DNA from: a virus
Reading direction: 5' to 3' (one strand)
Virus record (IMG/VR): IMGVR_UViG_3300020165_000009
Length of the DNA: 64,000 nucleotides
The first letter of the stretch is position 1, and each line of letters starts with the position of its first letter. Below are positions 1,821 through 57,436 of this stretch, piece after piece. Made by a program: the position numbers and the translations under genes. The notes beneath the pieces were generated by a model. That model worked only from the letters and a program-made list of their open reading frames with translations. It did not search any database and was not told the DNA's origin.

Positions 1821-3137
1821 CTATAGGCTCATCCTATCGAGCTTATCTGTCATCTCGCCAAAGTCACCATCGTCGTTATTGAGAGTATCATCCTCTGATA
1901 CGGTAAGAGTACCATAATCAATTCTCATTTCATTCCTACCGAAGTTAGCACCGAAACGATTCTTCATCATATGCAGGTTAATGATATTAAGTTCTTTATC
2001 TGTATCACTCTGAGTAATACCAACAATAACATCAGCTGTAGCGGCTAAGCCAATACTCTCACCAATAGTATCAAGAGTCGGTGACTCTGTATCGTAACCT
2101 GTACGGTTAAGCTGAGTAGCACTAATAATAGGGCAGTTGAATTTATAACTCAACGCTCTCACTTCTTCAGTAGCACACTTAATACGCTCATATAGATTAC
2201 TGTTAAGTGAACCTCTCAACAGGTTAATGTAATCCAGTACAATAGCGTCAATCTGAATACCTTTTAATTGAACGGTCTTGACATAGGAGGCAATCTGCTG
2301 AGCAGTAATAGTATTAGGAGGAAACTCTTTGATAATAAGTTTACCCATACCTTCCATGCTATCCATACTATGCTTTAACGTAGGTGTTTGAGATCTAAGA
2401 TCTGCAATAGGTATTTTAGTAATATCGGATGCAAGTCGACAAGCATACATAATTTCACTCATCTCAAGAGATAGTACTAATACGTTCTTACCTTTTCTAG
2501 CTAGATTGGTCGCAATATTACCTAGGAAAATACTCTTACCAACGTTCGTCTGGCCCGCGAATACATAAAACGCTCTTCCATTCGCTAAGAAGCCACCATT
2601 TAAGTTTTCGTCAAGCCAGTCCCATCCAGAAGATAGCGTCGGTTCATCTACACTCAACTCACGGGCCACCTCATCAATATCACCGAATAGATCAATACCA
2701 AGGTCGTCCTTCAACTCGATACTACAGCTCTTTTCAAACTTCTCGAGAATATAACTAGTATCAACCTTACCGTTAGTAATGTCTTCAGCTACATCCATCA
2801 TTGTATGGTAGATAGCTCTTTCCTTAAGGTATCTTTCAGTATTATCTAATAACTCATCTTTATTAAGATTCTTATCTATTTCATCGAAACTACCAGCAAC
2901 AGTCTTAAGAGCAGCTTTAACATCATCATTGACTAGATATGTCTTTAGTTCAGTGAGAGTCGGAGGCACACCTCTCTTATCATAAAAGCTCTTAATGATG
3001 GTAAAGAGTACCTTAATATTCTTATCGGCAATAATTTTAGGGTCTACATGACCGATGATCTCCGCAAGGTACTGCTCATCAGTTAAGCTTTTATATATTA
3101 AAACCTTCTCAAAATAATCTAAATCAATTTTTTCCAT
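1821..3137 (-). CDS. gp41: DnaB-like replicative helicase (T4 gp41-like)
   Basis: Walker A GQTNVGKS, SLEMSE, VLDYINL, SATQLNR, MKNRFG. Confidence 0.93.
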   Translation of the reverse strand: MEKIDLDYFEKVLIYKSLTDEQYLAEIIGHVDPKIIADKNIKVLFTIIKSFYDKRGVPPTLTELKTYLVNDDVKAALKTVAGSFDEIDKNLNKDELLDNTERYLKERAIYHTMMDVAEDITNGKVDTSYILEKFEKSCSIELKDDLGIDLFGDIDEVARELSVDEPTLSSGWDWLDENLNGGFLANGRAFYVFAGQTNVGKSIFLGNIATNLARKGKNVLVLSLEMSEIMYACRLASDITKIPIADLRSQTPTLKHSMDSMEGMGKLIIKEFPPNTITAQQIASYVKTVQLKGIQIDAIVLDYINLLRGSLNSNLYERIKCATEEVRALSYKFNCPIISATQLNRTGYDTESPTLDTIGESIGLAATADVIVGITQSDTDKELNIINLHMMKNRFGANFGRNEMRIDYGTLTVSEDDTLNNDDGDFGEMTDKLDRMSL

Positions 3138-3153
3138 TATATTTTATGTTGTA

Positions 3154-3822
3154 CTACTTTCGCCACTTCTTAATAAAGTATGTCTCGCCGTCGTAAAATT
3201 CTTTATCAGGTTTAGTTAGTCCTGGGCTACTGTGAATGATCGGTATATCCACTACGCCTATTGTAACGTGGTTCCTATTACATTCAAGTGAGAAGTCTAA
3301 ATCATAATAATGAAACTTAGATGGATAAGATTCGTCAAATCTCACATTTTCAGGTAACTCTTTAATATTGATGCCAATAAAGACTCCGTCAATAACTAAA
3401 CATCTGCTCGGTACAGGTCCGAAGGAGGTATACATATATGAATCTTTATCTCCATGAGCTACACACCCTCTTTGATCTTCCCTTTTTGACATAATATGCC
3501 ATAAAGCAGGGCTACCAACTTTACAAGAAGTAGCACCGGCGAGCCCGAATACGGTGTATTGATCTGCAGCTTTAGATATAAGAGAGTATAAATCACGGGT
3601 ATTAATATGTACGTCATCATGTACCATAACTGCAATATCAATATTGTTTTTCCGTGCATCGTCAATAAAATTATTGTAACACTGTTGAAGGCTTTTAGTA
3701 TTTTTATCCTCGTATTGTACTGAAACTCCTAGGTGATCTAGCCCGTAACTCTCTAAACATTTATAGAGTACGCAGTCCTCCTTATTGCCTTTAGTCGCGC
3801 TATAAATTTTAATATTATTCAT
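3154..3822 (-). CDS. GT2-like glycosyltransferase (Glyco_tranf_2_5/StrF-like)
   Basis: SLQQCYN, MVHDDV, GLAGA, VIDGVFIG, FDE..FHYYDLDFSL, IIHSSPG; start reassigned to MNNIKIY, which overlaps the upstream stop. Confidence 0.7.
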   Translation of the reverse strand: MNNIKIYSATKGNKEDCVLYKCLESYGLDHLGVSVQYEDKNTKSLQQCYNNFIDDARKNNIDIAVMVHDDVHINTRDLYSLISKAADQYTVFGLAGATSCKVGSPALWHIMSKREDQRGCVAHGDKDSYMYTSFGPVPSRCLVIDGVFIGINIKELPENVRFDESYPSKFHYYDLDFSLECNRNHVTIGVVDIPIIHSSPGLTKPDKEFYDGETYFIKKWRK

Positions 3823-4153
3823 AATCTTTGCGATCATCCAGTTCTGGTTTGTTATCTCTATTCCAAATCATACCCATTACATTCCACAATACCGCCCCTA
3901 GGTGGTCTTCACTCTCATCACCTCTGAAGTCTTGCATTAGATGTCTCATTGCACTGTCATATAGTACAGAATGCTTCATACCTCTCCGCCAGTTATTTTC
4001 TCCATAGGCCTCAGCACCTTGCAAGTATCTCACCATAACCGATTCTAAGGCTTTGTGTGGTACTAAACTCATACGTACCTTACCTTCACAGTTATCACGT
4101 TGTGCGCCAGTTTCAAACTGACGAGGCTTCCCAGTTGTTTTCAGATCATCCAT
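3815..4153 (-). CDS. dATP/dGTP diphosphohydrolase domain protein (DUF5664/dGTP_diPhyd_N-like)
   Basis: FETGAQRD..GK.RMSLVP, GAEAYGENNW.RG, DSAMRHL, EDHLGAVLWN. Confidence 0.8.
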   Translation of the reverse strand: MDDLKTTGKPRQFETGAQRDNCEGKVRMSLVPHKALESVMVRYLQGAEAYGENNWRRGMKHSVLYDSAMRHLMQDFRGDESEDHLGAVLWNVMGMIWNRDNKPELDDRKDYE

Positions 4154-4168
4154 ATAGAAATTATAATA

Positions 4169-4690
4169 TCACTTAGTAAAGAAATCAAGCCATAGATTAA
4201 GTGATATGTCCTTAAGTGTAGTAAACATTTCATCTAATGAGGCACATTCATTTTTTACACCATGTGACAACACTACCTTACCTTCATCAACACCGGGTGT
4301 AACGTGATGAATAACTGAGCCTATAGTAGAGTAGCAGCCCTCAAAGGCACGTACTTGCGGATCTTTACCTTTAAGTTGTGGATAGGATGTTATTAGTCCG
4401 GGATGGCCGTTATAAATTTTATACTCCTCGCATATCTCCTTAGGTATAATATTAAGCCATCCATGTAACGTAATAAAGCATGTGGATGGGTCACCAAAGC
4501 AATCTCTCAAGTACTGAACATCCTTAACGTGCCTCTTTGCAATTCGATGACCTACATCACTAATATTAAGTCTACGGTCAATCTTAGTATCATCTTTCTG
4601 ATCAAAAAATATAGAGGATGGATTAACTCCTCGTTCTACCAGGCTCGCTATCTCTGAACCAGTTTGTGAAAATAGTGCTATATGTCTCAT
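4169..4690 (-). CDS. PurN-like N10-formyl-THF formyltransferase (DpdN-like)
   Basis: LFSQTGS, LHGWLNII, catalytic YNGHPG, GSVIHHVTPGVDEG. Confidence 0.8.
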   Translation of the reverse strand: MRHIALFSQTGSEIASLVERGVNPSSIFFDQKDDTKIDRRLNISDVGHRIAKRHVKDVQYLRDCFGDPSTCFITLHGWLNIIPKEICEEYKIYNGHPGLITSYPQLKGKDPQVRAFEGCYSTIGSVIHHVTPGVDEGKVVLSHGVKNECASLDEMFTTLKDISLNLWLDFFTK

Positions 4691-5367
4691 AGTGTTAAGA
4701 ACGGTGATTTATGATTGAATGTGGATACTATCTCGTACCCAGTGGGGGTATATTTGTATATGGTACCTTCCGCTACCTCTATATAACCATTGCCCTTAAT
4801 AGATGATACATGTGTTCCTTTATAGAATAAAGTACTACCCTGTCTAGCTACATATAAGTTATTACTCCAGGTATTATACATCCAAACAGCATAGGTACCC
4901 TCAAGTCGTTGCAGCACTCTTGTAATATTATTAATTTCACCTTCTATTACACTTTCACACGGGCCATCTTTATAATCATTCTCGGCTAGAAGGTATGGTA
5001 TAATATAACTATCTACCGGATTATGAGGTACAGCTCTACATTCTTGTTGTAACTCCTTAAAGTTAGTCAATACCCCGTTATGAGCTACTACCCAGTCACC
5101 TACCTCGAATGGGTGTGATGTATCGTCTTGGAAATACCTCTGACTGCTAGTAGGAGCTTGGTTATGCCCTAGGAATAATTTACAATCTGCAGGTACACCC
5201 ATATCTTCCATACAGAAAGAACCTTCTTTACGTATAATGCCGTAATGTGCCTTATCACCTTTAACAGATGCATACAATAATCCAGTAGCAAAGTTGCCTC
5301 TAGATTGGTTAGCTTCCTCTAACACCTCGAAGGTATTACTATCATCACTACAATATATTCCGCACAT
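4687..5367 (-). CDS. class II (Ntn) glutamine amidotransferase
   Basis: True start is MCGIY at 5367 (Cys2 nucleophile), with TATAAT just upstream; motifs RG..ATG, LGHNQAPT, HPF, AHNGVLTN, VDS. Confidence 0.85.
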   Translation of the reverse strand: MCGIYCSDDSNTFEVLEEANQSRGNFATGLLYASVKGDKAHYGIIRKEGSFCMEDMGVPADCKLFLGHNQAPTSSQRYFQDDTSHPFEVGDWVVAHNGVLTNFKELQQECRAVPHNPVDSYIIPYLLAENDYKDGPCESVIEGEINNITRVLQRLEGTYAVWMYNTWSNNLYVARQGSTLFYKGTHVSSIKGNGYIEVAEGTIYKYTPTGYEIVSTFNHKSPFLTL

Positions 5368-5413
5368 ACTCTTATTATAGTATAAAACCAGTGTAGAATC
5401 CATAAATATTATT

Positions 5414-7051
5414 ATGAATTTCGCTACATGGACAAACCGAGTAATTAATGAGAGCAGTGAACATTACTTTGCTGAAGAGCTTCTAGAGGAAAGTATTGCT
5501 AAGACACTGAAGCCAGTAGTTAATAAAATGAAGAAACTAAACATAGGTGTACCATACCGTGATGCTCGCTTATTTTTCTTCAATTACCTTCAAGATCAGC
5601 ACCCTGAAGTTATTCCAGCTGAATTTAAAGATTCAAAAAGAAAACCATCAGCAAAAGATGTTAATGCAATGGTAGGTCAGATTGCAATTGATCGCCCAGA
5701 AATGCTCGATACGTTTGCAAACGAATTCGAAGCATACGCCACCGGCAAGGATGACGAAAATCCAGATGAGGATAGAGTATCAGAGTTTCTTAGAATCGCG
5801 ATGATACTTAGAACTGGCAAAAACGTTCGGCCTAAAAAACATGAAGGTTATAAGACAAAGGAATATAGCAACTTATCAGCTGAGGAGATCAAAAACACAA
5901 CAATGGATGCAATTGAAAAGGCTCCAGTTGAAAAAGGAGTAGATCCTGATATTGGGGATGAGAAGCTTCTACTGAAAGTAGCATTCACTAAGGTACTTGC
6001 TCAACTCCAAGAGCTTGACGAGCTTGACCCTAAGGTGCTTGTCAATATCGCTGACACTGGCGCAAAAGTAGACAGCATTGATAAGTTCAAGCAGTTTTTA
6101 GATTACATGCACCAGTTCGAAGAGTACCATCTCGCCGAAGCATACTTACGTGATATGATCGCAGTTCTTGAAAGGGAAATGGCTAGTAAGGAAGACGAAG
6201 AGCTTGATGATTTTGATACAAGTCGTCATTCAGATGAAGATATTCCGGAATATTTAGAGGACTTGCATGCGATGAGGGCTGGTAAATTTCCTGGTATGAA
6301 GAAGAAGAGAAAGGTAGTTGATTATGATACATCTTATGCACCCGTTTACGACACAGAAGAAGACGCTGAAGGTGTCAGTGTAAAGCAAGAAGTACTTAAC
6401 GCTGTTAAACAAGGTGCTGGTGAGTTTGCTCATAAAGCAGCTGGTATGCTTCAGTCAGCTAAAGAGCTTCATGACCAATATAGCAGACAGGGTGATCAAG
6501 AAAGAGCTAGTATCACTAAGTCACTCGTTAATCACTTCACTGTACAATCAAAGTTTGATGAAGATGCAGAGGCAAAGCCGGACTATATGGATATGGACGG
6601 CGATGGTGACAAAGAAGAGTCGATGAAGAAAGCTGCTAAAGATAAGCACGCTGCATGTGAAGATGCCGAAAATGGGTGTGATTGTGGCATGTGTCCGGAT
6701 TGTGCTGATAATGCAAGATATGGTACCTCGGATGAAGAGCAGAAGAGCATTAAAGATGAATACCATCTTTCCCCAGAGCAGTATGAAAAAGCTCGAGGAA
6801 TGGCAGACTTTGATGCTAGTGAATGGTTCTTTAGCCCGTCACAGAAGCTATACTTTAGAAAAAGAGAAGGTGGTGAAGATCAAGAGCAATCAACTGCTCA
6901 ATATATGTCCAAGGCCCCTGTCGAAAAACGTGAAGAGTCTGAAGAAGCGAGAATGTCTCAACAAGAGATTAACCAAATGCTCGCTAACCGAGAGAGAGAA
7001 AGAGTTCAAAACCTTTACGCTCAACAAAGACTGCATACTCAAGGATATTAA
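5414..7051 (+). CDS. acidic modular late protein, probable internal head protein
   Basis: TAAATA 5 nt upstream; N-terminal MNFATWTNRVINES; repeated EDxE linkers; DMDGDGDKEES and CDCGMCPDC modules. Confidence 0.55.
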   Translation: MNFATWTNRVINESSEHYFAEELLEESIAKTLKPVVNKMKKLNIGVPYRDARLFFFNYLQDQHPEVIPAEFKDSKRKPSAKDVNAMVGQIAIDRPEMLDTFANEFEAYATGKDDENPDEDRVSEFLRIAMILRTGKNVRPKKHEGYKTKEYSNLSAEEIKNTTMDAIEKAPVEKGVDPDIGDEKLLLKVAFTKVLAQLQELDELDPKVLVNIADTGAKVDSIDKFKQFLDYMHQFEEYHLAEAYLRDMIAVLEREMASKEDEELDDFDTSRHSDEDIPEYLEDLHAMRAGKFPGMKKKRKVVDYDTSYAPVYDTEEDAEGVSVKQEVLNAVKQGAGEFAHKAAGMLQSAKELHDQYSRQGDQERASITKSLVNHFTVQSKFDEDAEAKPDYMDMDGDGDKEESMKKAAKDKHAACEDAENGCDCGMCPDCADNARYGTSDEEQKSIKDEYHLSPEQYEKARGMADFDASEWFFSPSQKLYFRKREGGEDQEQSTAQYMSKAPVEKREESEEARMSQQEINQMLANRERERVQNLYAQQRLHTQGY

Positions 7052-7061
7052 TTCATAACAC

Positions 7062-7430
7062 ATGTTAATAGCAAATACACTATACACTTATAAGGCAAAA
7101 GTAGTATCCATATATGATGGTGATTCCTTGAGATTGGATATTGATCTCGGATTCAAAGTCGTTATGCAAAACCAGCGCGTTCGATTACTCGGAATAGATA
7201 CACCGGAAGTGAGGGGTGAGGAGCGTGAATCTGGTATAGCTGCGAGGGATTACATGAGAGATTTATTATCAGATAAAGAAATTATAATTACCACTATAAA
7301 GGACAAGTACGGTAAGTATGGTAGGTGGCTGGTAGAGGTGTTTATACCAGACGAAACTCAAGAGAGTGGATTTCTAAATGTTAATCAACATTTAATTAGC
7401 GAGGGCTTAGCTGTCCCATACGGGGAATGA
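7062..7430 (+). CDS. thermonuclease (staphylococcal nuclease-like)
   Basis: IYDGDS, VRLLGIDTPE, KYGRWL, VNQHLISEGLA. Confidence 0.88.
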   Translation: MLIANTLYTYKAKVVSIYDGDSLRLDIDLGFKVVMQNQRVRLLGIDTPEVRGEERESGIAARDYMRDLLSDKEIIITTIKDKYGKYGRWLVEVFIPDETQESGFLNVNQHLISEGLAVPYGE

Positions 7431-7699
7431 GTGAGTACGAGAAAAATAAATACTATTGCGGTGCGTGGTGGACGCCGAAATGGGTTCGTAGGATTTTAAG
7501 TACTAGGTTTAACGCTAGTTGTAAAGTACATGATCTAGATTATGATACTACGAGGTTTAGTAGAGAAGAGGCAGATACTAGATTTTTACTTCATATGATA
7601 AGACAGGCAAAGAGCTCTATATTCTGGGAAGTTATAGCTACGTTGTTTTATATCTCAGTTAGACTTATTGGTAAGCTATCGTGGGGTAAAAAAGATTAG
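7427..7699 (+). CDS. small phospholipase A2-like / DUF1353-like protein
   Basis: YCG...SCKVHDLDY...R.EAD..F motif typical of prokaryotic PLA2-like folds. Confidence 0.5.
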   Translation: MSEYEKNKYYCGAWWTPKWVRRILSTRFNASCKVHDLDYDTTRFSREEADTRFLLHMIRQAKSSIFWEVIATLFYISVRLIGKLSWGKKD

Positions 7700-8436
7700 T
7701 TGATAGACTTACAACCATTCTTCTCATATATAGCGTCTAACTTATCCTGCTGTATATAATCTAAAGGGTCCCTCAGCTTAGCTTCAACGAAGCCTTGTAG
7801 CCTTAAGCTGCTGCTAGCAGACTCAACGTCACAAGGGTACTCGCCTGAATAGCAGGTATATGTATTACTAAAGTTTACCCCAAGGGAGACGCCGTCTAAG
7901 ACGATATCTTTTTTAGACATTTCAATAAGAGGAGCAACTACTGTAATTCTATTCTCTCTATTAAGTGCTGTTACGTCATTTAACTGATTTACAAACTCTT
8001 CAGATCCATCCCAGTAACCGGCTAAACTATCTGCTTGCGCGGCCCCGTACCATACCTCACCGGCACCTACAGCCTCAGCATAAGAGCAAAGCATACTCAA
8101 GAACATTAAATTACGGAATGGTACATAACTCTTAGGTTGAGCTTCACCCATCATATCATTTACATTCGGGGTATCAATACTATCATTAGTGAGTGACGAT
8201 ACTGGCGCCATCTCACGTATAAAAGTTGTATCAAGTAATTTATTATGAAATACTTTATCTGGGTATAAGTTCTTAATATCAGCTAGCTGCTTTTCAACGC
8301 ACTCTAGTTCTCGTTTATGACGCTGCCCATAATCAAAGCTAATAGTATGTACTTCATCAGCTAGCCTCGCAGCTTTAAACAACAGTACAGCAGAATCCAT
8401 CCCACCACTGAGAGTTACAACAATTTTTCTTTTCAT
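7696..8436 (-). CDS. queC: 7-cyano-7-deazaguanine synthase
   Basis: PP-loop LSGGMDS, FDYGQRH, YVPFRN, TYTCY; C-terminal Zn motif degenerate. Confidence 0.9.
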   Translation of the reverse strand: MKRKIVVTLSGGMDSAVLLFKAARLADEVHTISFDYGQRHKRELECVEKQLADIKNLYPDKVFHNKLLDTTFIREMAPVSSLTNDSIDTPNVNDMMGEAQPKSYVPFRNLMFLSMLCSYAEAVGAGEVWYGAAQADSLAGYWDGSEEFVNQLNDVTALNRENRITVVAPLIEMSKKDIVLDGVSLGVNFSNTYTCYSGEYPCDVESASSSLRLQGFVEAKLRDPLDYIQQDKLDAIYEKNGCKSIN

Positions 8437-8457: not shown

Positions 8458-9576
8458 CTACTCAACTGCTATCACAGCATCCTCAGTTACTTCGTCTGGA
8501 ATAATCTCATCTGTATCACCTACATCTTTATTACTGTACTTCCATTCTTTCTTAATCTTCTCTTCTACAACCGGTATAATAGTCTTATCCCATAGTTCAG
8601 TATCATCTTTCCACTTACTATAATAGCCGAGTTTCTTACCATCTGGTAATTGATATGTTGCGCCAGTCTGTATAACTGCTCCAAGACCTACCGCGAGATC
8701 CAATAAGCCAAAGTACTTGTGCAGGCCACGATCAAATGACAGGTACATCTCACCTTGCAAGTACTGCTTAACGAAACGATTCTTAACGGTCAGTGCTCGT
8801 AGAATAACACCAGAGTAGCTCTTTTGACCTACAGCTAATTTGCCGTCAGTGTTCTTGTCTTCCTTAACCGGTTTACGAGCTAGCTGTATAGTAACAGAAG
8901 GTAGATATACAGTAGCAGTACCACCTGGCATTGCTTTTACAAGCGACGGAAACATTGCTGATGGGTCTTCATAAATGTGGTTAGTGGCAAGAATAGTAGT
9001 TTTAGTTAAGCCGGATAGTTGAGTAAGTGTACGTAATAGCGACTTCATTGCTTTAGCTCTACTACCCATATCAGCACTTACATTACCCTTTGTCTGACGA
9101 TTGATCTGCAATTGACTTTCCATATTACCTAGAGAGTCAATAGCGATTATAAATTTACCTTCCTGACCCTTCTCCTTTACTTTAGTTAAGAAGTCGAAAA
9201 TCGTGTTGCGGCATTCTTCAATACTAAAGACTGGTACATACTTCACCTTACTAACATCTAGACCTAACGCTTCAGCACCATCCCTATCGATAGCGTTCTC
9301 ACTATCAAAGATAACTGGAATTAAACCTTCCTTTTGAGCATTAGCTAGAATCTTTTGCAGAATAAACGATTTACCGGTCATACTCGGACCAGCTAGTAGG
9401 GTCATTCTATTCTTTGGAATACCGCCGTGGAGTGAACCTGATACAATACCGTTAAGTACCATAGAACCAGTATCGATCCAACCGTCTACGTTGCTAATAG
9501 CGCTCTCATTTAAGAAGGACGCGTAAGGATTAGACTTATCAATTACAGATAAAATATCGTCAATTTCTTTACTCAT
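8458..9576 (-). CDS. uvsX: RecA-like recombinase
   Basis: DTGS..LNG..SG, Walker A GPSMTGKS, FDSE, IDSLG, TNH. Confidence 0.92.
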   Translation of the reverse strand: MSKEIDDILSVIDKSNPYASFLNESAISNVDGWIDTGSMVLNGIVSGSLHGGIPKNRMTLLAGPSMTGKSFILQKILANAQKEGLIPVIFDSENAIDRDGAEALGLDVSKVKYVPVFSIEECRNTIFDFLTKVKEKGQEGKFIIAIDSLGNMESQLQINRQTKGNVSADMGSRAKAMKSLLRTLTQLSGLTKTTILATNHIYEDPSAMFPSLVKAMPGGTATVYLPSVTIQLARKPVKEDKNTDGKLAVGQKSYSGVILRALTVKNRFVKQYLQGEMYLSFDRGLHKYFGLLDLAVGLGAVIQTGATYQLPDGKKLGYYSKWKDDTELWDKTIIPVVEEKIKKEWKYSNKDVGDTDEIIPDEVTEDAVIAVE

Positions 9577-9584
9577 ATACCTAA

Positions 9585-10427
9585 TTATAGTATACCTTTC
9601 GCCTTGTTCAAGTAATAGTTTAGCTCTTTCGTATATACGGGTACAAAGTTTTTAATGCCACCTTGACCAGACCATATACACGCATCTACTCTAAACTCTG
9701 TATTATCTGGACCACCTTCATCTTTATATCTTAATGGCACCTTTAAGCACGTAGGGTTAAATAACTTGCACGCATCATTAAATACAGACTCGTCTGATGA
9801 TACATTAAATAAATCAATTTTTTCAGCACAAAACTTTATAAATTTACGGCTTACCTCTGTATTTCTAACAACAATTAAACCACCTGTTTCGAGTTCAAAA
9901 TCCTCGCCGAGTTTAACTTTTTCAAAACGATTAAAATTATTATCGTCAACCTTGACCGCGACATCTGTCACGACACCAATATCCGACTTATACTCGTGCA
10001 TAGCATCATAGAGATCATTAATATCTTTACGTACTATTGCATCTACGTCACTATATATATAAACTTCATCCACCTCATCTACCATCAACGTATTGAGGGT
10101 ATCATATTTTATACCTGTACAATAACTTGCATGCTCACTATATACTCGTTTAAAAATTTGATAATCATGAATCTTAGGTAAGTTTCTTAAATGTTCATCA
10201 GTAATATAATGCTTGTCTGCCCAATCAGGGTATAATATAGTAGGCTTCGTATTTAACTCTATATTATCAAATATATATTTAACGTTATTAAAATTTATGA
10301 GAGCGGATTCATCAACATTGACGCATCTACATATAATTTTAACATTTGGACTATTATCTAATGCAGACTGTGCAAAAGCGTTAAATAGGGGTAGATATTT
10401 TTCATCACTCGTACATACTATAGTCAT
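9585..10427 (-). CDS. GT-A fold nucleotide-diphospho-sugar transferase
   Basis: TSDEKY, YSDVDAIVR (DxD), YKD...IWSG; paralogue of 33185 and 40364. Confidence 0.65.
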   Translation of the reverse strand: MTIVCTSDEKYLPLFNAFAQSALDNSPNVKIICRCVNVDESALINFNNVKYIFDNIELNTKPTILYPDWADKHYITDEHLRNLPKIHDYQIFKRVYSEHASYCTGIKYDTLNTLMVDEVDEVYIYSDVDAIVRKDINDLYDAMHEYKSDIGVVTDVAVKVDDNNFNRFEKVKLGEDFELETGGLIVVRNTEVSRKFIKFCAEKIDLFNVSSDESVFNDACKLFNPTCLKVPLRYKDEGGPDNTEFRVDACIWSGQGGIKNFVPVYTKELNYYLNKAKGIL

Positions 10428-43839: not shown

Positions 43840-44490
43840 CTATCTACCCCAGTCGTTAACGAACGTATAGAACTCACTACGCGTAGATGTATCATCGAGA
43901 AAGTCACCACTAATCTTCGCAGTCTTCATCTCGCACCCATCATGCTTAATACCGCGGAGGCATGCGCAAGTATGAGATGCAGAGATCATTACTGCAACAC
44001 CTTTATTACCTTCACATACTTCATCAATTGCTTTATGAATCTGAGTAGTTAGACCTTCTTGAATCTGCGGTCGTCTAGCATAATGCTCTACAATTCTATT
44101 CAGCTTACTCAGACCGATAACTTTACCATCGGCAGAGGGTAAATAAGCTACGTGACATCTACCCGTAAATGCTAGGTGGTGATGCGAACATAGACTCTTT
44201 ACAGGAATACCACCCTGAAATACCATCCCATTATAGCCATCAGAAGGGAAAGCTGTAATATTAGGTAGCTCATTATAACAACCAGCTGCAATATCATTTA
44301 CATAAGCTTTAGCAACACGCTTAGGTGTACCATCACTATTAGGATCGTTTCTCCAGTCAATACGTAAAGCATCTAGAAACTTTTCATAAGCTTCTGTAGC
44401 GTTAAGGATAACCTGTTGTTTTTCGTCATCGCTGAGCGGCATATTACCATTAGCGGTTGGTAGCTTGGTTAGTTTAATTCTATCGGACAT
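43840..44490 (-). CDS. folE: GTP cyclohydrolase I
   Basis: TPKRVAKAY, SLCSHH..F.G, GLSKLNR, RRPQIQE, HTC...RG. Confidence 0.95.
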   Translation of the reverse strand: MSDRIKLTKLPTANGNMPLSDDEKQQVILNATEAYEKFLDALRIDWRNDPNSDGTPKRVAKAYVNDIAAGCYNELPNITAFPSDGYNGMVFQGGIPVKSLCSHHHLAFTGRCHVAYLPSADGKVIGLSKLNRIVEHYARRPQIQEGLTTQIHKAIDEVCEGNKGVAVMISASHTCACLRGIKHDGCEMKTAKISGDFLDDTSTRSEFYTFVNDWGR

Positions 44491-46175: not shown

Positions 46176-46805
46176 ATGAAATACTTATCTACTAAGGTTA
46201 TACCCATGGGCAGTACTGCTTTTCGTCAATGGAAGGCGTATAGTCATTGCAAATTTATTCACGGATACCGTTTACAATGTAAGTTATGGTTTTCAGCTGA
46301 TGAGTTGGATGACCGTAACTGGGTATTTGATTTCGGTGACTGTAAAGATATTAAGACAGCTTTAGAGGATCAATTTGACCATACTACGTGTGTAGCTGCA
46401 GATGATCCAGAGCTTCATAGCTTTCAGCATTTAGCTGACCGTGGATTAATACAACTTCGTATTATGCAAGATGGTGTTGGAGTCGAGAGAGCGGCTGAGT
46501 GGGTATATAACAAAGCAAGTGAGATTGTTAAGGATAAGACGCAAGGTAGAGTTACAGTCGCAAAGGTTGAGGTATGGGAGCATGAAGGTAATAGTGCCGT
46601 CTATGAACAATCGACTAGCTCTGCAGAAGATAAAAGTAATGCAAAGCCTGATGTAGAAGCTGCTATGCGGACCGCAGCTGTTGTTGAAAATACGGTAACT
46701 GAAGTACCGCCTGCAGAACCTAATACCGAGCCCGGTCATCCCCCTAAGCAGAGAGTAACTCAGGGTATGTCAAATCCATTCGGTGGAACGAGTTGGGGAG
46801 AGTAA
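46176..46805 (+). CDS. queD: 6-carboxy-5,6,7,8-tetrahydropterin synthase
   Basis: AFRQW...SHC..IHGY, WVFDFG, FDH, G.E..A, VEVWEH..NSA; low-complexity C-terminal tail. Confidence 0.9.
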   Translation: MKYLSTKVIPMGSTAFRQWKAYSHCKFIHGYRLQCKLWFSADELDDRNWVFDFGDCKDIKTALEDQFDHTTCVAADDPELHSFQHLADRGLIQLRIMQDGVGVERAAEWVYNKASEIVKDKTQGRVTVAKVEVWEHEGNSAVYEQSTSSAEDKSNAKPDVEAAMRTAAVVENTVTEVPPAEPNTEPGHPPKQRVTQGMSNPFGGTSWGE

Positions 46806-47918: not shown

Positions 47919-48677
47919 ATGAACTTAGAAAAAGAAACATTAATACTCTCTGACGATAAAATATTTTATACGATAGAGGGTGAAGGTGAGTATATAGGTC
48001 AGCGCTCTTTGTTTATGCGCATGGCGATGTGCAATCTAACTTGCATTGGTTTTGCCTCTGAAGACTCTCCTCATGGTTGTGATTCCTTTATCTCTTGGAG
48101 TATTAAAAATAAGATGACTTTTAATGAGATCTTTCAGATGATGGAAGACAATAACTGGATTGAAAAACTTGAGAAGGGTACTATATGGAAGCTTACCGGT
48201 GGTGAGCCTCTAATTCAACAGAAGCAACTACTTAAACTAGTTGAAGCGTTTATTGAGAAGTATGACTTCACCCCGAAGATTGACTTCGAGACGAACGCTA
48301 CTCTTATGCCTAGCCCGAGATGGAAGGAAGAGTTTGATGCTACCTTCACAACTTCACCGAAGTTAACTACTAATGGTGACCCGGAGAATAAGACCTATAA
48401 GCCTGAAGTTCTCAAGTATCACAAAGAGATTAACTCTGGTTTTAAGTTTGTTATTAATGACCCTGCTGAAGATATAAAGGAGATATGGAGTAAGTACGTT
48501 GAAGATACAGAGGGTATTAATGTAAGTCTCGATAGAATCTGGTTCATGCCGTGTGCTGGTTCACGTGTGGAACATATTGCTAATGCTGAGGCGGTTGTTG
48601 AATACGCGAAGTTAATGCACGTTCACTTCTCACCTCGATTGCATTTATTAGTGTGGGATAAGGCTCTTAAAGTCTGA
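47919..48677 (+). CDS. queE: 7-carboxy-7-deazaguanine synthase (radical SAM)
   Basis: FYTIEGEG..IG, R...CNLTC-x11-CDS, TGGEP, ETN, SPK, PRLH..VW. Confidence 0.9.
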   Translation: MNLEKETLILSDDKIFYTIEGEGEYIGQRSLFMRMAMCNLTCIGFASEDSPHGCDSFISWSIKNKMTFNEIFQMMEDNNWIEKLEKGTIWKLTGGEPLIQQKQLLKLVEAFIEKYDFTPKIDFETNATLMPSPRWKEEFDATFTTSPKLTTNGDPENKTYKPEVLKYHKEINSGFKFVINDPAEDIKEIWSKYVEDTEGINVSLDRIWFMPCAGSRVEHIANAEAVVEYAKLMHVHFSPRLHLLVWDKALKV

Positions 48678-50560: not shown

Positions 50561-50776
50561 ATGTTTATACTGGCTGGAATAGAACAATTGTTATTTGAAG
50601 TATTAGGTAGCCTCTTTAAAGAAGCTCTTAAGAAAATGGTAGCTGCGGCTGCATCACTAAAAGATGCTCCAGCTAGTTTTTTTATAACAGTCGGAGTTGT
50701 ATGTACTAGCCTTATTGCATTAACTATTCTCTGCAAAAGATATAAAAGAAGTAAATTTAAAGAAAATGAAGCATAA
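50561..50776 (+). CDS. small membrane protein
   Basis: 71 aa with a C-terminal TM segment. Confidence 0.45.
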   Translation: MFILAGIEQLLFEVLGSLFKEALKKMVAAAASLKDAPASFFITVGVVCTSLIALTILCKRYKRSKFKENEA

Positions 50777-51392
50777 TTACGATCAACTAACTAACCTCAT
50801 ATTAGAGGGTCTAGGCGGGTATAAGCCAATCACACTACCATACTCATTTAATGATTTAGAACCTCATATTGATGCGGAGACAATGAAGCTCCACTATAAT
50901 AAGCACTATAAGGGCTACGTCAAAAAGCTAAACGACGCTATCGGTAAAACTCACATACCATTGAGAGAATTAGTAGTTAAAGCTGCAAACAGAAAAGCAG
51001 ATGTACGTAATAATGCTGGCGGAGCATACAATCATCAACTCTTCTGGAATATGATGACACCTCATAAACATTCATGCAGAGGCTTGATAAAGGAAGCTAT
51101 TGATAAGAAGTTTGGTTCCGTTGACAGTTTTTACGAAGAGTTTACAGCACAAGCAAAGTCGCATTTCGGCTCCGGTTGGGTATGGCTTATTAAAAGGGGT
51201 AATACCTTGAAGATTGTACAAACAGATAATCAGGATAATCCTCTTATGTTTGATCAAGGAGAACCAATACTAGGTATTGATGTCTGGGAGCACGCCTATT
51301 ATAAAAAGTATGGGCCGGATAGAGAGAAGTATATTAAAAACTTCTTAAAGGTGGTTAACTGGGATTATTGTAATCAGCTATTATCGCTTTAA
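50766..51392 (+). CDS. sodA: Fe/Mn superoxide dismutase (Mn-type signatures)
   Basis: LPY...LEPHID..TM..HY.KH, NNAGG.YNH..FW, FGSGW.W, NQD, DVWEHAYY. Confidence 0.93.
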   Translation: MKHNYDQLTNLILEGLGGYKPITLPYSFNDLEPHIDAETMKLHYNKHYKGYVKKLNDAIGKTHIPLRELVVKAANRKADVRNNAGGAYNHQLFWNMMTPHKHSCRGLIKEAIDKKFGSVDSFYEEFTAQAKSHFGSGWVWLIKRGNTLKIVQTDNQDNPLMFDQGEPILGIDVWEHAYYKKYGPDREKYIKNFLKVVNWDYCNQLLSL

Positions 51393-52100: not shown

Positions 52101-52928
52101 ATGAGATTAGCTATTAGCGGTACGGGTTGTCAAGGGAAATCAACATTAATTAAGGACTTCCTAGAAGAATGGCCCATGTATAAAACTGAAAGTCAGACGT
52201 ACCGTGACGTACTTACTAGTGAGAAGTTACCTCACAGTAAAGAAGCTACTAAAGAGACACAATGGAGGATTCTCAATCATATGATTGATGAGATGCAGAC
52301 CTTTAACCCCGGTGATAATGTCATTATGGACAGGTGCCCTATTGACAACTTAGTTTACTCTCTTTGGTGTTTTGAGAAAGGTGTTGGTGATATTGATAAG
52401 GAGTTTATTGATAAATGCATACCTCTTGTCTGCGAGAGTTTAAAGAATATAGACATCATATTTTTTACACCTATTACTAAAGCTGCTCCTATTACCCCTG
52501 TTGAAGATGGTGTACGTGAAACAGATTCTACCTATATTAAAGAAATTGATAACCTATTTAAAATGATAGGAGCTCAGCATATTGAAAACAACGGCCTCAA
52601 TCCATTCTTTCCAAAAGAAGATGCGCCGGGTTGGATTGAAGTATTCGGAGACAGGCCTGTTAGAATCGCCATGATTAAGCAATATATCGATGAGACCGGT
52701 GATCTTGTCGGTGGGTGGGAATGTGCTCCGGAGCCTGATATCGTCGACCCTAATAATCAATCTGTTGGTGATAACGAAGAAGCAGCTGCAATGAAAGCAT
52801 TAATCGATGATCAACAAAATGCTAAAGTGTTTGAGAAGGATCTCGCAGATCAGAAGCAGCTAATTAAAGATACGCTAGGTGATAAAGAAATCGATGAGAT
52901 TAACAGTCTATATAATCCCAAAGCTTAA
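52101..52928 (+). CDS. P-loop kinase/ATPase (AAA_28/NadR-like, possible nucleotide kinase)
   Basis: ISGTGCQGKST, MDRCPIDNLVY, DG.R. Confidence 0.7.
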   Translation: MRLAISGTGCQGKSTLIKDFLEEWPMYKTESQTYRDVLTSEKLPHSKEATKETQWRILNHMIDEMQTFNPGDNVIMDRCPIDNLVYSLWCFEKGVGDIDKEFIDKCIPLVCESLKNIDIIFFTPITKAAPITPVEDGVRETDSTYIKEIDNLFKMIGAQHIENNGLNPFFPKEDAPGWIEVFGDRPVRIAMIKQYIDETGDLVGGWECAPEPDIVDPNNQSVGDNEEAAAMKALIDDQQNAKVFEKDLADQKQLIKDTLGDKEIDEINSLYNPKA

Positions 52929-56848: not shown

Positions 56849-57436
56849 ATGATTATTAAAGATATTCAAGTTTACGACGGCCCTCTCATTCATAAGAGAT
56901 TCGCATACGATTATTTCCGTAATAAAGTATTACCTACTGGTAATATAATTGCTTTTAGATGTCCGATGGATGTGAGCATTGATGGTATGATTGACCAAGA
57001 AGATGTGCTGCAGGGAGATTATATATATAGTGATGATGCAGTTAACTTCTGTTGGGAGATTCCAAACTTAGATAGGTTTGGAGCCGTAGCGTTTCAGCGC
57101 TTACTCAACACTCAGATTGCTAGTATACTATCTGGTTTAACCAATAAGCCGATTGAGGTAGATGGAGACGACCTCATGGTTCATGATGAATTTGAAGGAA
57201 ATGACGGTAAGCTACAAGCTGTTGGTAAGTGTAGTGTTAGTATTACATACTCAAAAGATAATGTAGCTATTGGGCATACGGGTATTAATATTAATGCTGG
57301 TAGTAAAGCTCCTGCATTTGCTTATAGTACTAAACTTAATGAGGAGCAGACTCAAGAGTTTATGACTAGGGTTATTGATACCTTTTACGGTATGGTAGAT
57401 GATATCTTCATCGCTACTACTAAGATTAATCTATAA
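56849..57436 (+). CDS. DUF366-family protein (biotin/lipoate-ligase-like fold)
   Basis: YDG..I...FAY, I.AFR.P.DV...MID.ED....D.I.S, QRL, GDDL, GK.SVSI, HTGIN; TTGATA-N17-TATAAT upstream. Confidence 0.65.
   Translation: MIIKDIQVYDGPLIHKRFAYDYFRNKVLPTGNIIAFRCPMDVSIDGMIDQEDVLQGDYIYSDDAVNFCWEIPNLDRFGAVAFQRLLNTQIASILSGLTNKPIEVDGDDLMVHDEFEGNDGKLQAVGKCSVSITYSKDNVAIGHTGININAGSKAPAFAYSTKLNEEQTQEFMTRVIDTFYGMVDDIFIATTKINL

Follow-up and report, generated by a model that had tools for sequence, protein, structure and literature searches.

A probable, dispersed fdPreQ1 DNA-modification system with an exchangeable acyltransferase gene in uncultured marine T4-like phages

In Flavobacterium phage immuto_2-6A all dG is replaced by 7-(formylamino)methyl-7-deazaguanine (fdPreQ1), and the phage protein YP_010114479.1 was named DpdN by Cui et al. 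2023 (PMC10516641). In Escherichia phage 9g, archaeosine is found in DNA (dG+) and is produced with a fused Gat-QueC, in which the PP-loop enzyme QueC is joined to a class II glutamine amidotransferase (Gat) that has a Cys at its N-terminus (Hutinet et al. 2019, PMC6884629). A further related arrangement occurs in pf16 (NC_041881), a distant T4-like Pseudomonas phage with the gene order FolE-gp80-QueF-QueC-gp77 (Gat)-gp76 (PRA-PH)-DNA polymerase (contig L159, 34.7-45.3 kb), for which we found no report of DNA modification. Here we analysed IMG/VR record IMGVR_UViG_3300020165_000009, a 64,000-nucleotide stretch of viral DNA (the window, meaning this whole stretch), which comes from an uncultured T4-like phage of marine origin and carries a 7-deazaguanine locus surrounded by UvsX, gp41, gp43 and gp32-type genes. 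The locus probably forms the QueC-bearing portion of a system, complete but scattered over the genome, by which G in the phage DNA is replaced with fdPreQ1.

Matches in Pfam, PHROG and NCBIfam placed all the genes for synthesis of 7-cyano-7-deazaguanine (preQ0), namely FolE, QueD, QueE and QueC, within the window, and the gene order described in an earlier, sequence-only reading of this DNA was confirmed by Pfam and PHROG. The formyltransferase of the locus was compared with phage proteins and showed 42% identity to immuto YP_010114479.1 over 171/173 residues (E 2e-42), the next-best phage match having an E value of 1e-4. Alignment with PurN structures matched the N-x-H-P motif of PurN type and the Asp within VDEG, and the catalytic Asn, His and Asp residues are all kept. 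We read this protein as a DpdN orthologue of the PurN family, whose predicted substrate is the aminomethyl group of 7-aminomethyl-7-deazaguanine (preQ1) or of dPreQ1.

The sequence-only reading had pointed out that neither DpdA nor QueF is present in the window, and tblastn searches with the immuto DpdA3 and QueF agreed (best E 0.47), the weak DpdA3 matches inside orf545 and orf504 (E 0.5-1.3) being judged due to chance. From the combination of genes it had suggested that the locus follows neither known route and makes a new G substitute. However, contig L022, which is 88-91% identical in nucleotide sequence to positions 53-64 kb of the window, carries DpdA3, a kinase and QueF about 7-9 kb beyond the position matching the window end. 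The L022 DpdA3 matched phrog_19058 (E 9e-60), and a protein 52% identical to immuto DpdA3 was found in L022 and in the relatives G002, G003 and G018. The L022 QueF is bimodular (QueF_N and QueF), 45% identical to the immuto protein and recognised by TIGR03138 with 265 bits; since it contains both the NADPH motif ESKSIKLY and the catalytic Cys within SNCRVTSQPDW, it is predicted to be a reductase and not a QueF-L amidinotransferase. Between the two genes, in the same arrangement as in immuto, lies an AAA_28 kinase (L022:19188-19742; phrog_2107; NadR nucleoside-kinase type). A longer AAA_28 kinase of 275 aa (phrog_2107 'thymidylate kinase'; NadR nucleoside-kinase-like) was also observed in the window itself at 52101-52928.

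The DpdA3-kinase-QueF trio recurs in G002, a relative of 185 kb, and in three further relatives, and in G002, whose locus has an acetyltransferase of the GNAT type, DpdA3 and QueF are on the same contig as the locus. Large contigs of greater divergence (RNR about 60% identical) proved to belong to unrelated phages devoid of DpdA3 and were of no use for comparison. Judging from the close relatives, the absence of DpdA and QueF from the window would be an effect of where the window ends. Because DpdA3 and QueF were found in close relatives, and because DpdN (42%), FolE (58%), QueD (44%), DpdA3 (52%) and QueF (45%) resemble the immuto proteins, the full published fdPreQ1 gene set appears to be present in this lineage. 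The idea of a new G substitute made by neither known route is contradicted by these identities and, as far as sequence can show, by the occurrence of QueF and DpdA elsewhere in the lineage.

In the proposed pathway, FolE, QueD and QueE, encoded at 43.8-48.7 kb, would convert GTP into 7-carboxy-7-deazaguanine (CDG), from which QueC would produce preQ0. QueF, encoded just past the window, would reduce preQ0 to preQ1, the DpdN orthologue would formylate the aminomethyl group, and DpdA3, whose gene adjoins that of QueF, would insert the base into DNA. Gat, probably once located beside QueC, would hydrolyse glutamine to provide ammonia for QueC, while the gene after Gat would constitute a terminal 'decoration' slot, which holds DpdN in the window and, in sister phages, a GNAT acetyltransferase. 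The remaining members of the locus, a protein consisting of a PF18909 domain and a putative glycosyltransferase (GT) of the GT-A type, are conserved neighbours that are given no step in the base chemistry.

All seven enzyme families of the immuto system are present in this lineage, the AAA_28 kinase stands beside DpdA3 and QueF in both, and immuto provides the best match for FolE and QueD of the window. The organisation is different, since the genes of the window lineage occupy three separate sites of a T4-like genome and DpdN adjoins QueC, whereas in immuto it is located between DpdA3 and the kinase. The window lineage adds a stand-alone Gat, a PF18909 protein and a GT-A enzyme, none of which occurs in immuto, whose cluster has a PRA-PH pyrophosphohydrolase and a phosphoribosyltransferase (PRTase) instead, and the QueC of the window is devoid of two zinc cysteines. 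The locus can thus be described as a differently organised fdPreQ1 member in a widespread marine T4-like lineage, with two variant features, a coupled stand-alone Gat and a formyl/acetyl slot.

The identities of the genes and their conserved linkage were directly observed. Several points weigh against the assignment of fdPreQ1. The phage is uncultured and known from metagenomes alone, the base being read from its genes only, and DpdA3 and QueF were assigned to its genome through a close relative. In immuto, fdPreQ1 is made although this Gat, the PF18909 protein and the GT are all absent, and the plain route therefore leaves their strict conservation in the window lineage unexplained. Moreover, the similarity of Gat to Gat-QueC fusions does not exceed its similarity to GlmS or to the Gat proteins of amidoligase clusters, and QueC is missing two zinc ligands.

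The organisation of the locus was compared in 53 IMG/VR loci fetched by means of the PF18909 protein and in two more distant contigs, the gene order being read as far as each contig reaches. This set showed the architecture UvsX-QueC-(variable inverted insert)-Gat-X-PF18909-(optional insert)-GT-gp41, and the co-occurrence check suggested by the sequence-only reading thus revealed a gene set co-conserved in about 55 related loci. In the window, Gat, DpdN, PF18909, GT and gp41 form a single tight string on the same strand; the Gat stop and the formyltransferase start overlap in the sequence ATGA, and the PF18909 gene overlaps the GT gene. No terminator-like site was detected between the string genes on that strand in a scan of 1.7-9.7 kb, in which promoter and terminator signals were at chance level. 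The helicase gene gp41 is the final gene of the string and serves as an anchor outside the pathway. The distance between QueC and Gat ranged from about 1.1 to 3.3 kb across the loci with different insert content; since both size and content vary among relatives, the insert is outside the pathway, and QueC and Gat were probably once adjacent.

Position X was occupied either by DpdN or by a GNAT acetyltransferase of 157-163 aa (PF13508, PF00583), never by both, with GNAT replacing DpdN in about 60% of the related loci. When maximum-likelihood trees were built for Gat, QueC and GT, at least 4-5 changes between DpdN and GNAT were required even on strongly supported branches. A direct comparison of L153 (DpdN) and L119 (GNAT) showed 93-94% nucleotide identity in Gat and in the PF18909 gene, with homology breaking at the borders of the acyltransferase open reading frame (ORF). 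The formyl and acetyl enzymes therefore appear, from the trees and the compared pair, to have been exchanged repeatedly as gene-for-gene cassettes between near-identical backbones, and on the basis of this exchange the GNAT-type sister phages are predicted to carry N-acetyl-preQ1 in their DNA. The DpdN type is also represented by L164, a 166-kb ENA contig, and G001, the nearest record to the window, covers the same locus in a fragment of 16 kb. In a more distant relative a nucleoside 2-deoxyribosyltransferase-like gene (PF15891; L166:5344-5829) was observed between the GNAT and PF18909 genes, which hints at nucleoside or nucleotide handling in the string.

The true start of Gat is the internal MCGIY at position 5367, which places Cys as the N-terminal nucleophile after Met, as expected for a class II enzyme. 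All of 18 orthologues, and pf16 gp77 with them, begin with MCGI and so share Cys2, by which Gat looks active. An invariant SPFLTL tail closes the Gat orthologues. The gene is translationally coupled through ATGA to the acyltransferase gene that follows it, DpdN in the window, and has 1,192 homologue clusters in metagenomes. No Gat was found in immuto by tblastn or with a profile that recovered pf16 gp77 as a positive control. Because asparagine synthetase combines an Ntn (N-terminal nucleophile) amidotransferase with a PP-loop domain, and because QueC uses ammonia, we infer by analogy that Gat would make preQ0 synthesis glutamine-dependent by supplying QueC with ammonia. The predicted complex of QueC and Gat reached a score of 0.34 (control, 0.40), which we count neither for nor against an interaction.

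In QueC, alignment with 2pg3 and 3bl5 showed that Cys3 and Cys4 of the four zinc cysteines are replaced by Ser; this change is kept in 17 orthologues, which also have an invariant Cys242 in a C-terminal extension of about 30 residues, whereas all four cysteines are retained in the QueC of pf16 and in the Gat-QueC of PSTCR4. The pf16 cluster resembles the window lineage in that QueC is followed, here directly, by a stand-alone Gat that belongs to the same family at 26% identity and with a profile E value of 4.8e-10; it also has a QueF, which is bimodular, and a small nucleotide-hydrolase-type gene after Gat, adjoining replication genes. It differs in that neither an acyltransferase nor a GT is present and its pyrophosphohydrolase belongs to another Pfam family. 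BLASTP gave no similarity between pf16 gp80 (440 aa) and DpdA3, and no DpdA3-like protein was recognised in the pf16 cluster. The recurrence of a stand-alone Gat beside QueC in two distant phage lineages points to glutamine-dependent preQ0 synthesis. A specific origin of Gat by splitting of a Gat-QueC fusion was also considered and found unsupported, since the longer Gat homologues consisted of GlmS and of Gat proteins from phage clusters of the amidoligase/GGACT kind, with no Gat-QueC fusion among them.

The 112-aa PF18909 protein is the most conserved product of the string (73-99% identity). The sequence-only reading had named it a dNTP diphosphohydrolase and assigned to it the depletion of dGTP. 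In MazZ-type enzymes PF04447 is the hydrolytic domain and PF18909 the N-terminal one (bioRxiv 10.1101/2025.10.22.683976). The window protein and 44 other diverse relatives were scanned and contained PF18909 only; the protein thus shares this domain with MazZ, the dATP/dGTP diphosphohydrolase of 2-aminoadenine phages, but differs from it in that the catalytic PF04447 (DUF550) was not detected. The PF18909 family comprises 13,177 representative clusters and is common in actinophages without any deazaguanine link. A protein 73% identical to that of the window is encoded at L150:6995-7327 on a contig that shares no neighbour genes with the window; since this homologue sits in an unrelated context, the PF18909 gene moves independently of the deazaguanine module. 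Searches for PDB relatives by phmmer or with a 45-sequence profile returned none, the AlphaFold2 (AF2) model was poor (pLDDT 65) with no match in Foldseek, and hhalign of the PF18909 profile with immuto gp208 and pf16 gp76 gave a probability of about 1% or less, indicating no relation. Because PF04447 is absent, the family widespread and its contexts unrelated, the protein cannot be cited as a destroyer of dGTP, and neither earlier claim is supported. Annotation of PF18909-only proteins as 'dATP/dGTP diphosphohydrolase' is therefore an over-reach and may mislead predictions of pre-replicative replacement.

The last gene before gp41 is predicted from its AF2 model (pLDDT 79, pTM 0.83) to encode a real GT-A fold enzyme. 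The best Foldseek match was UDP-bound majastridin (2qgi/2nxv, E 1.4e-8), followed by other GT-A enzymes down to E 1e-4, and the residues H73, D74 and D75 (HDD) are invariant in 23 orthologues, in agreement with an acidic DxD-type motif. No homologue was detected in isolated phages by tblastn against 50,697 phage records, while metagenomes contained 454 homologue clusters, all without names. In relatives whose GT identity is as low as 46-54%, the GT gene still neighbours gp41 and the PF18909 gene. Since every clade member also has deazaguanine genes, co-occurrence cannot separate a function of the GT from the shared backbone. Another sugar transferase-like gene (GT8/nucleotide-diphospho-sugar transferase) was observed in the window at 9585-10427, between uvsX and gp43, and is absent from the otherwise syntenic L164.

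Other explanations of the locus were evaluated against these data. In a pre-replicative scheme, which develops an idea of the sequence-only reading, synthesis and acylation might take place on the free base or at the nucleotide level; the kinase beside DpdA3 would then phosphorylate the product and the polymerase incorporate it, with dGTP lowered through the PF18909 protein, and the final base could still be fdPreQ1. This scheme would agree with the finding that G is replaced completely in the tested phages with DpdA3, and attempts to demonstrate DpdA3 activity in E. coli did not succeed, its action on DNA never having been shown (PMC10516641). A P-loop kinase of the AAA_28/NadR nucleoside-kinase type is always found beside DpdA3, the PF15891 gene lies in the string of a distant relative, and genes for all-alpha NTP pyrophosphohydrolases occur in the deazaguanine clusters of immuto (gp208, PRA-PH), pf16 (gp76) and phiST (CGPG_00068). 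However, the PF18909 protein has neither the catalytic domain nor a detectable relation to the PRA-PH of immuto or pf16, and its family is distributed in thousands of phages without deazaguanine genes, including the 73%-identical copy in another context, so that this gene adds little to the idea. Furthermore, DpdA3 is a homologue with the tRNA-guanine transglycosylase (TGT) fold to which the literature gives a post-replicative role, and we consider pre-replicative synthesis unlikely. A broader proposal, that Gat, the acyltransferase, the PF18909 protein and the GT form a working unit beyond the published fdPreQ1 route, either pre-replicative with PF18909 aiding the removal of dGTP or with a group added by the GT to give an undescribed base, seems decidedly unlikely to us; if it were true, the DpdN/GNAT exchange would amount to a 'serotype switch' by which a DNA base is varied in an arms race.

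The occurrence of Gat, an N-acyltransferase and a GT-A enzyme in one tight string could also reflect a new hypermodified base, with the GT adding a sugar to the deazaguanine side chain, or with the formyltransferase and Gat making an N-formyl amino sugar that the GT would transfer to DNA. Alternation between formyl and acetyl groups is also typical of amino-sugar N-acylation and was counted in favour of this possibility, as were the further GT genes flanking the DNA polymerase. Yet the formyltransferase groups with the DpdA3-linked DpdN of immuto, which has neither this GT nor this Gat, Gat is devoid of a sugar isomerase domain, and no pyridoxal phosphate (PLP) aminotransferase genes or nucleotidyl-sugar genes occur in the string. 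In addition, inserts of about 1.1-1.9 kb separate the GT and PF18909 genes in many loci, the structural neighbours of the GT have proteins or glycans as their substrates, no link between the GT and DNA was seen, and N-acylated preQ1 is without a hydroxyl that could receive a sugar. A hypermodified base, including the glycosylated deazaguanine put forward by the sequence-only reading, is thus highly improbable. A similar judgement, very unlikely, was reached for Gat and QueC acting as a split Gat-QueC archaeosine synthase, with dG+ in the DNA alone or together with fdPreQ1. The two halves of PHROG 10428, a 476-aa Gat-QueC family, match Gat (N-terminal) and QueC (C-terminal), and the resemblance to the 9g enzyme extends to the class II Gat with N-terminal Cys and the PP-loop QueC. 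Unlike in 9g, the two genes are unfused and their order is reversed, QueC coming before Gat at a distance of 2.3 kb with an inverted insert between them. Gat shows no specific relationship to the fused proteins, with no fusion among its longer homologues, and this lineage has DpdN and a QueF with the canonical NADPH motif; pf16 likewise combines QueF with QueC-Gat. Of the original interpretation, a 7-deazaguanine DNA-modification locus with a co-conserved gene set was retained, while the departure from both known routes, the depletion of dGTP by the 112-aa protein and the glycosylation were not supported.

The features of the window, together with the GNAT-type slots of the relatives, are collected in Table 1. 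Two other genes of the window were recorded, one encoding a DUF366 protein (56849-57436; PF04017, E 7e-23) with no homologue in immuto or pf16, and one a phage Fe/Mn superoxide dismutase (50766-51392; PF00081 and PF02777).

Table 1. Position of the genes of the locus, its surroundings and the preQ0 genes in the window, and of GNAT-type slots in related loci.
Feature	Position	Strand	Match or remark
gp41/DnaB-like replicative helicase	1821-3137	minus	PF03796 E 8e-25; phrog_19 E 3e-71
Glycosyltransferase (GT)	3154-3837	minus	PF13712 E 3e-9
112-aa PF18909 protein	3815-4153	minus	PF18909 E 8e-20
Formyltransferase (DpdN orthologue)	4169-4690	minus	PF00551
Class II (Ntn) Gat, stand-alone	ORF 4687-5403, true start 5367	minus	PF13522 and PF13537
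orf545	5414-7051	plus	inverted insert; without family match
SNase-like nuclease	7062-7430	plus	inverted insert; PF00565, phrog_452
orf90	7427-7699	plus	inverted insert
QueC (7-cyano-7-deazaguanine synthase)	7696-8436	minus	PF06508 E 2e-53; TIGR00364 156.7 bits (cut-off 150.3)
UvsX	8458-9576	minus	
FolE (GTP cyclohydrolase I)	43840-44490	minus	PF01227 E 4e-47
QueD	46176-46805	plus	PF01242 E 2e-19; phrog_2389 E 9e-37
QueE (radical SAM CDG synthase)	47919-48677	plus	phrog_2076 E 4e-40; PF13353 E 3.5e-5
GNAT-type slot	L107:8619-9095 (G002)		also in L111, L113, L114, L116, L119, L121, L122, L125
GNAT-type slot, further loci			L127-L132, L134-L149, L166, L167

T-even phages vary the glucosylation of their DNA, and the exchange of formyl and acetyl enzymes between the loci described here suggests a similar selection on the acyl group itself. 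If the prediction made for the GNAT-type phages is true, N-acetyl-preQ1 would be the ninth natural 7-deazaguanine. The fdPreQ1 base already known from immuto very probably occurs also in these uncultured marine phages, which make up an abundant T4-like group.

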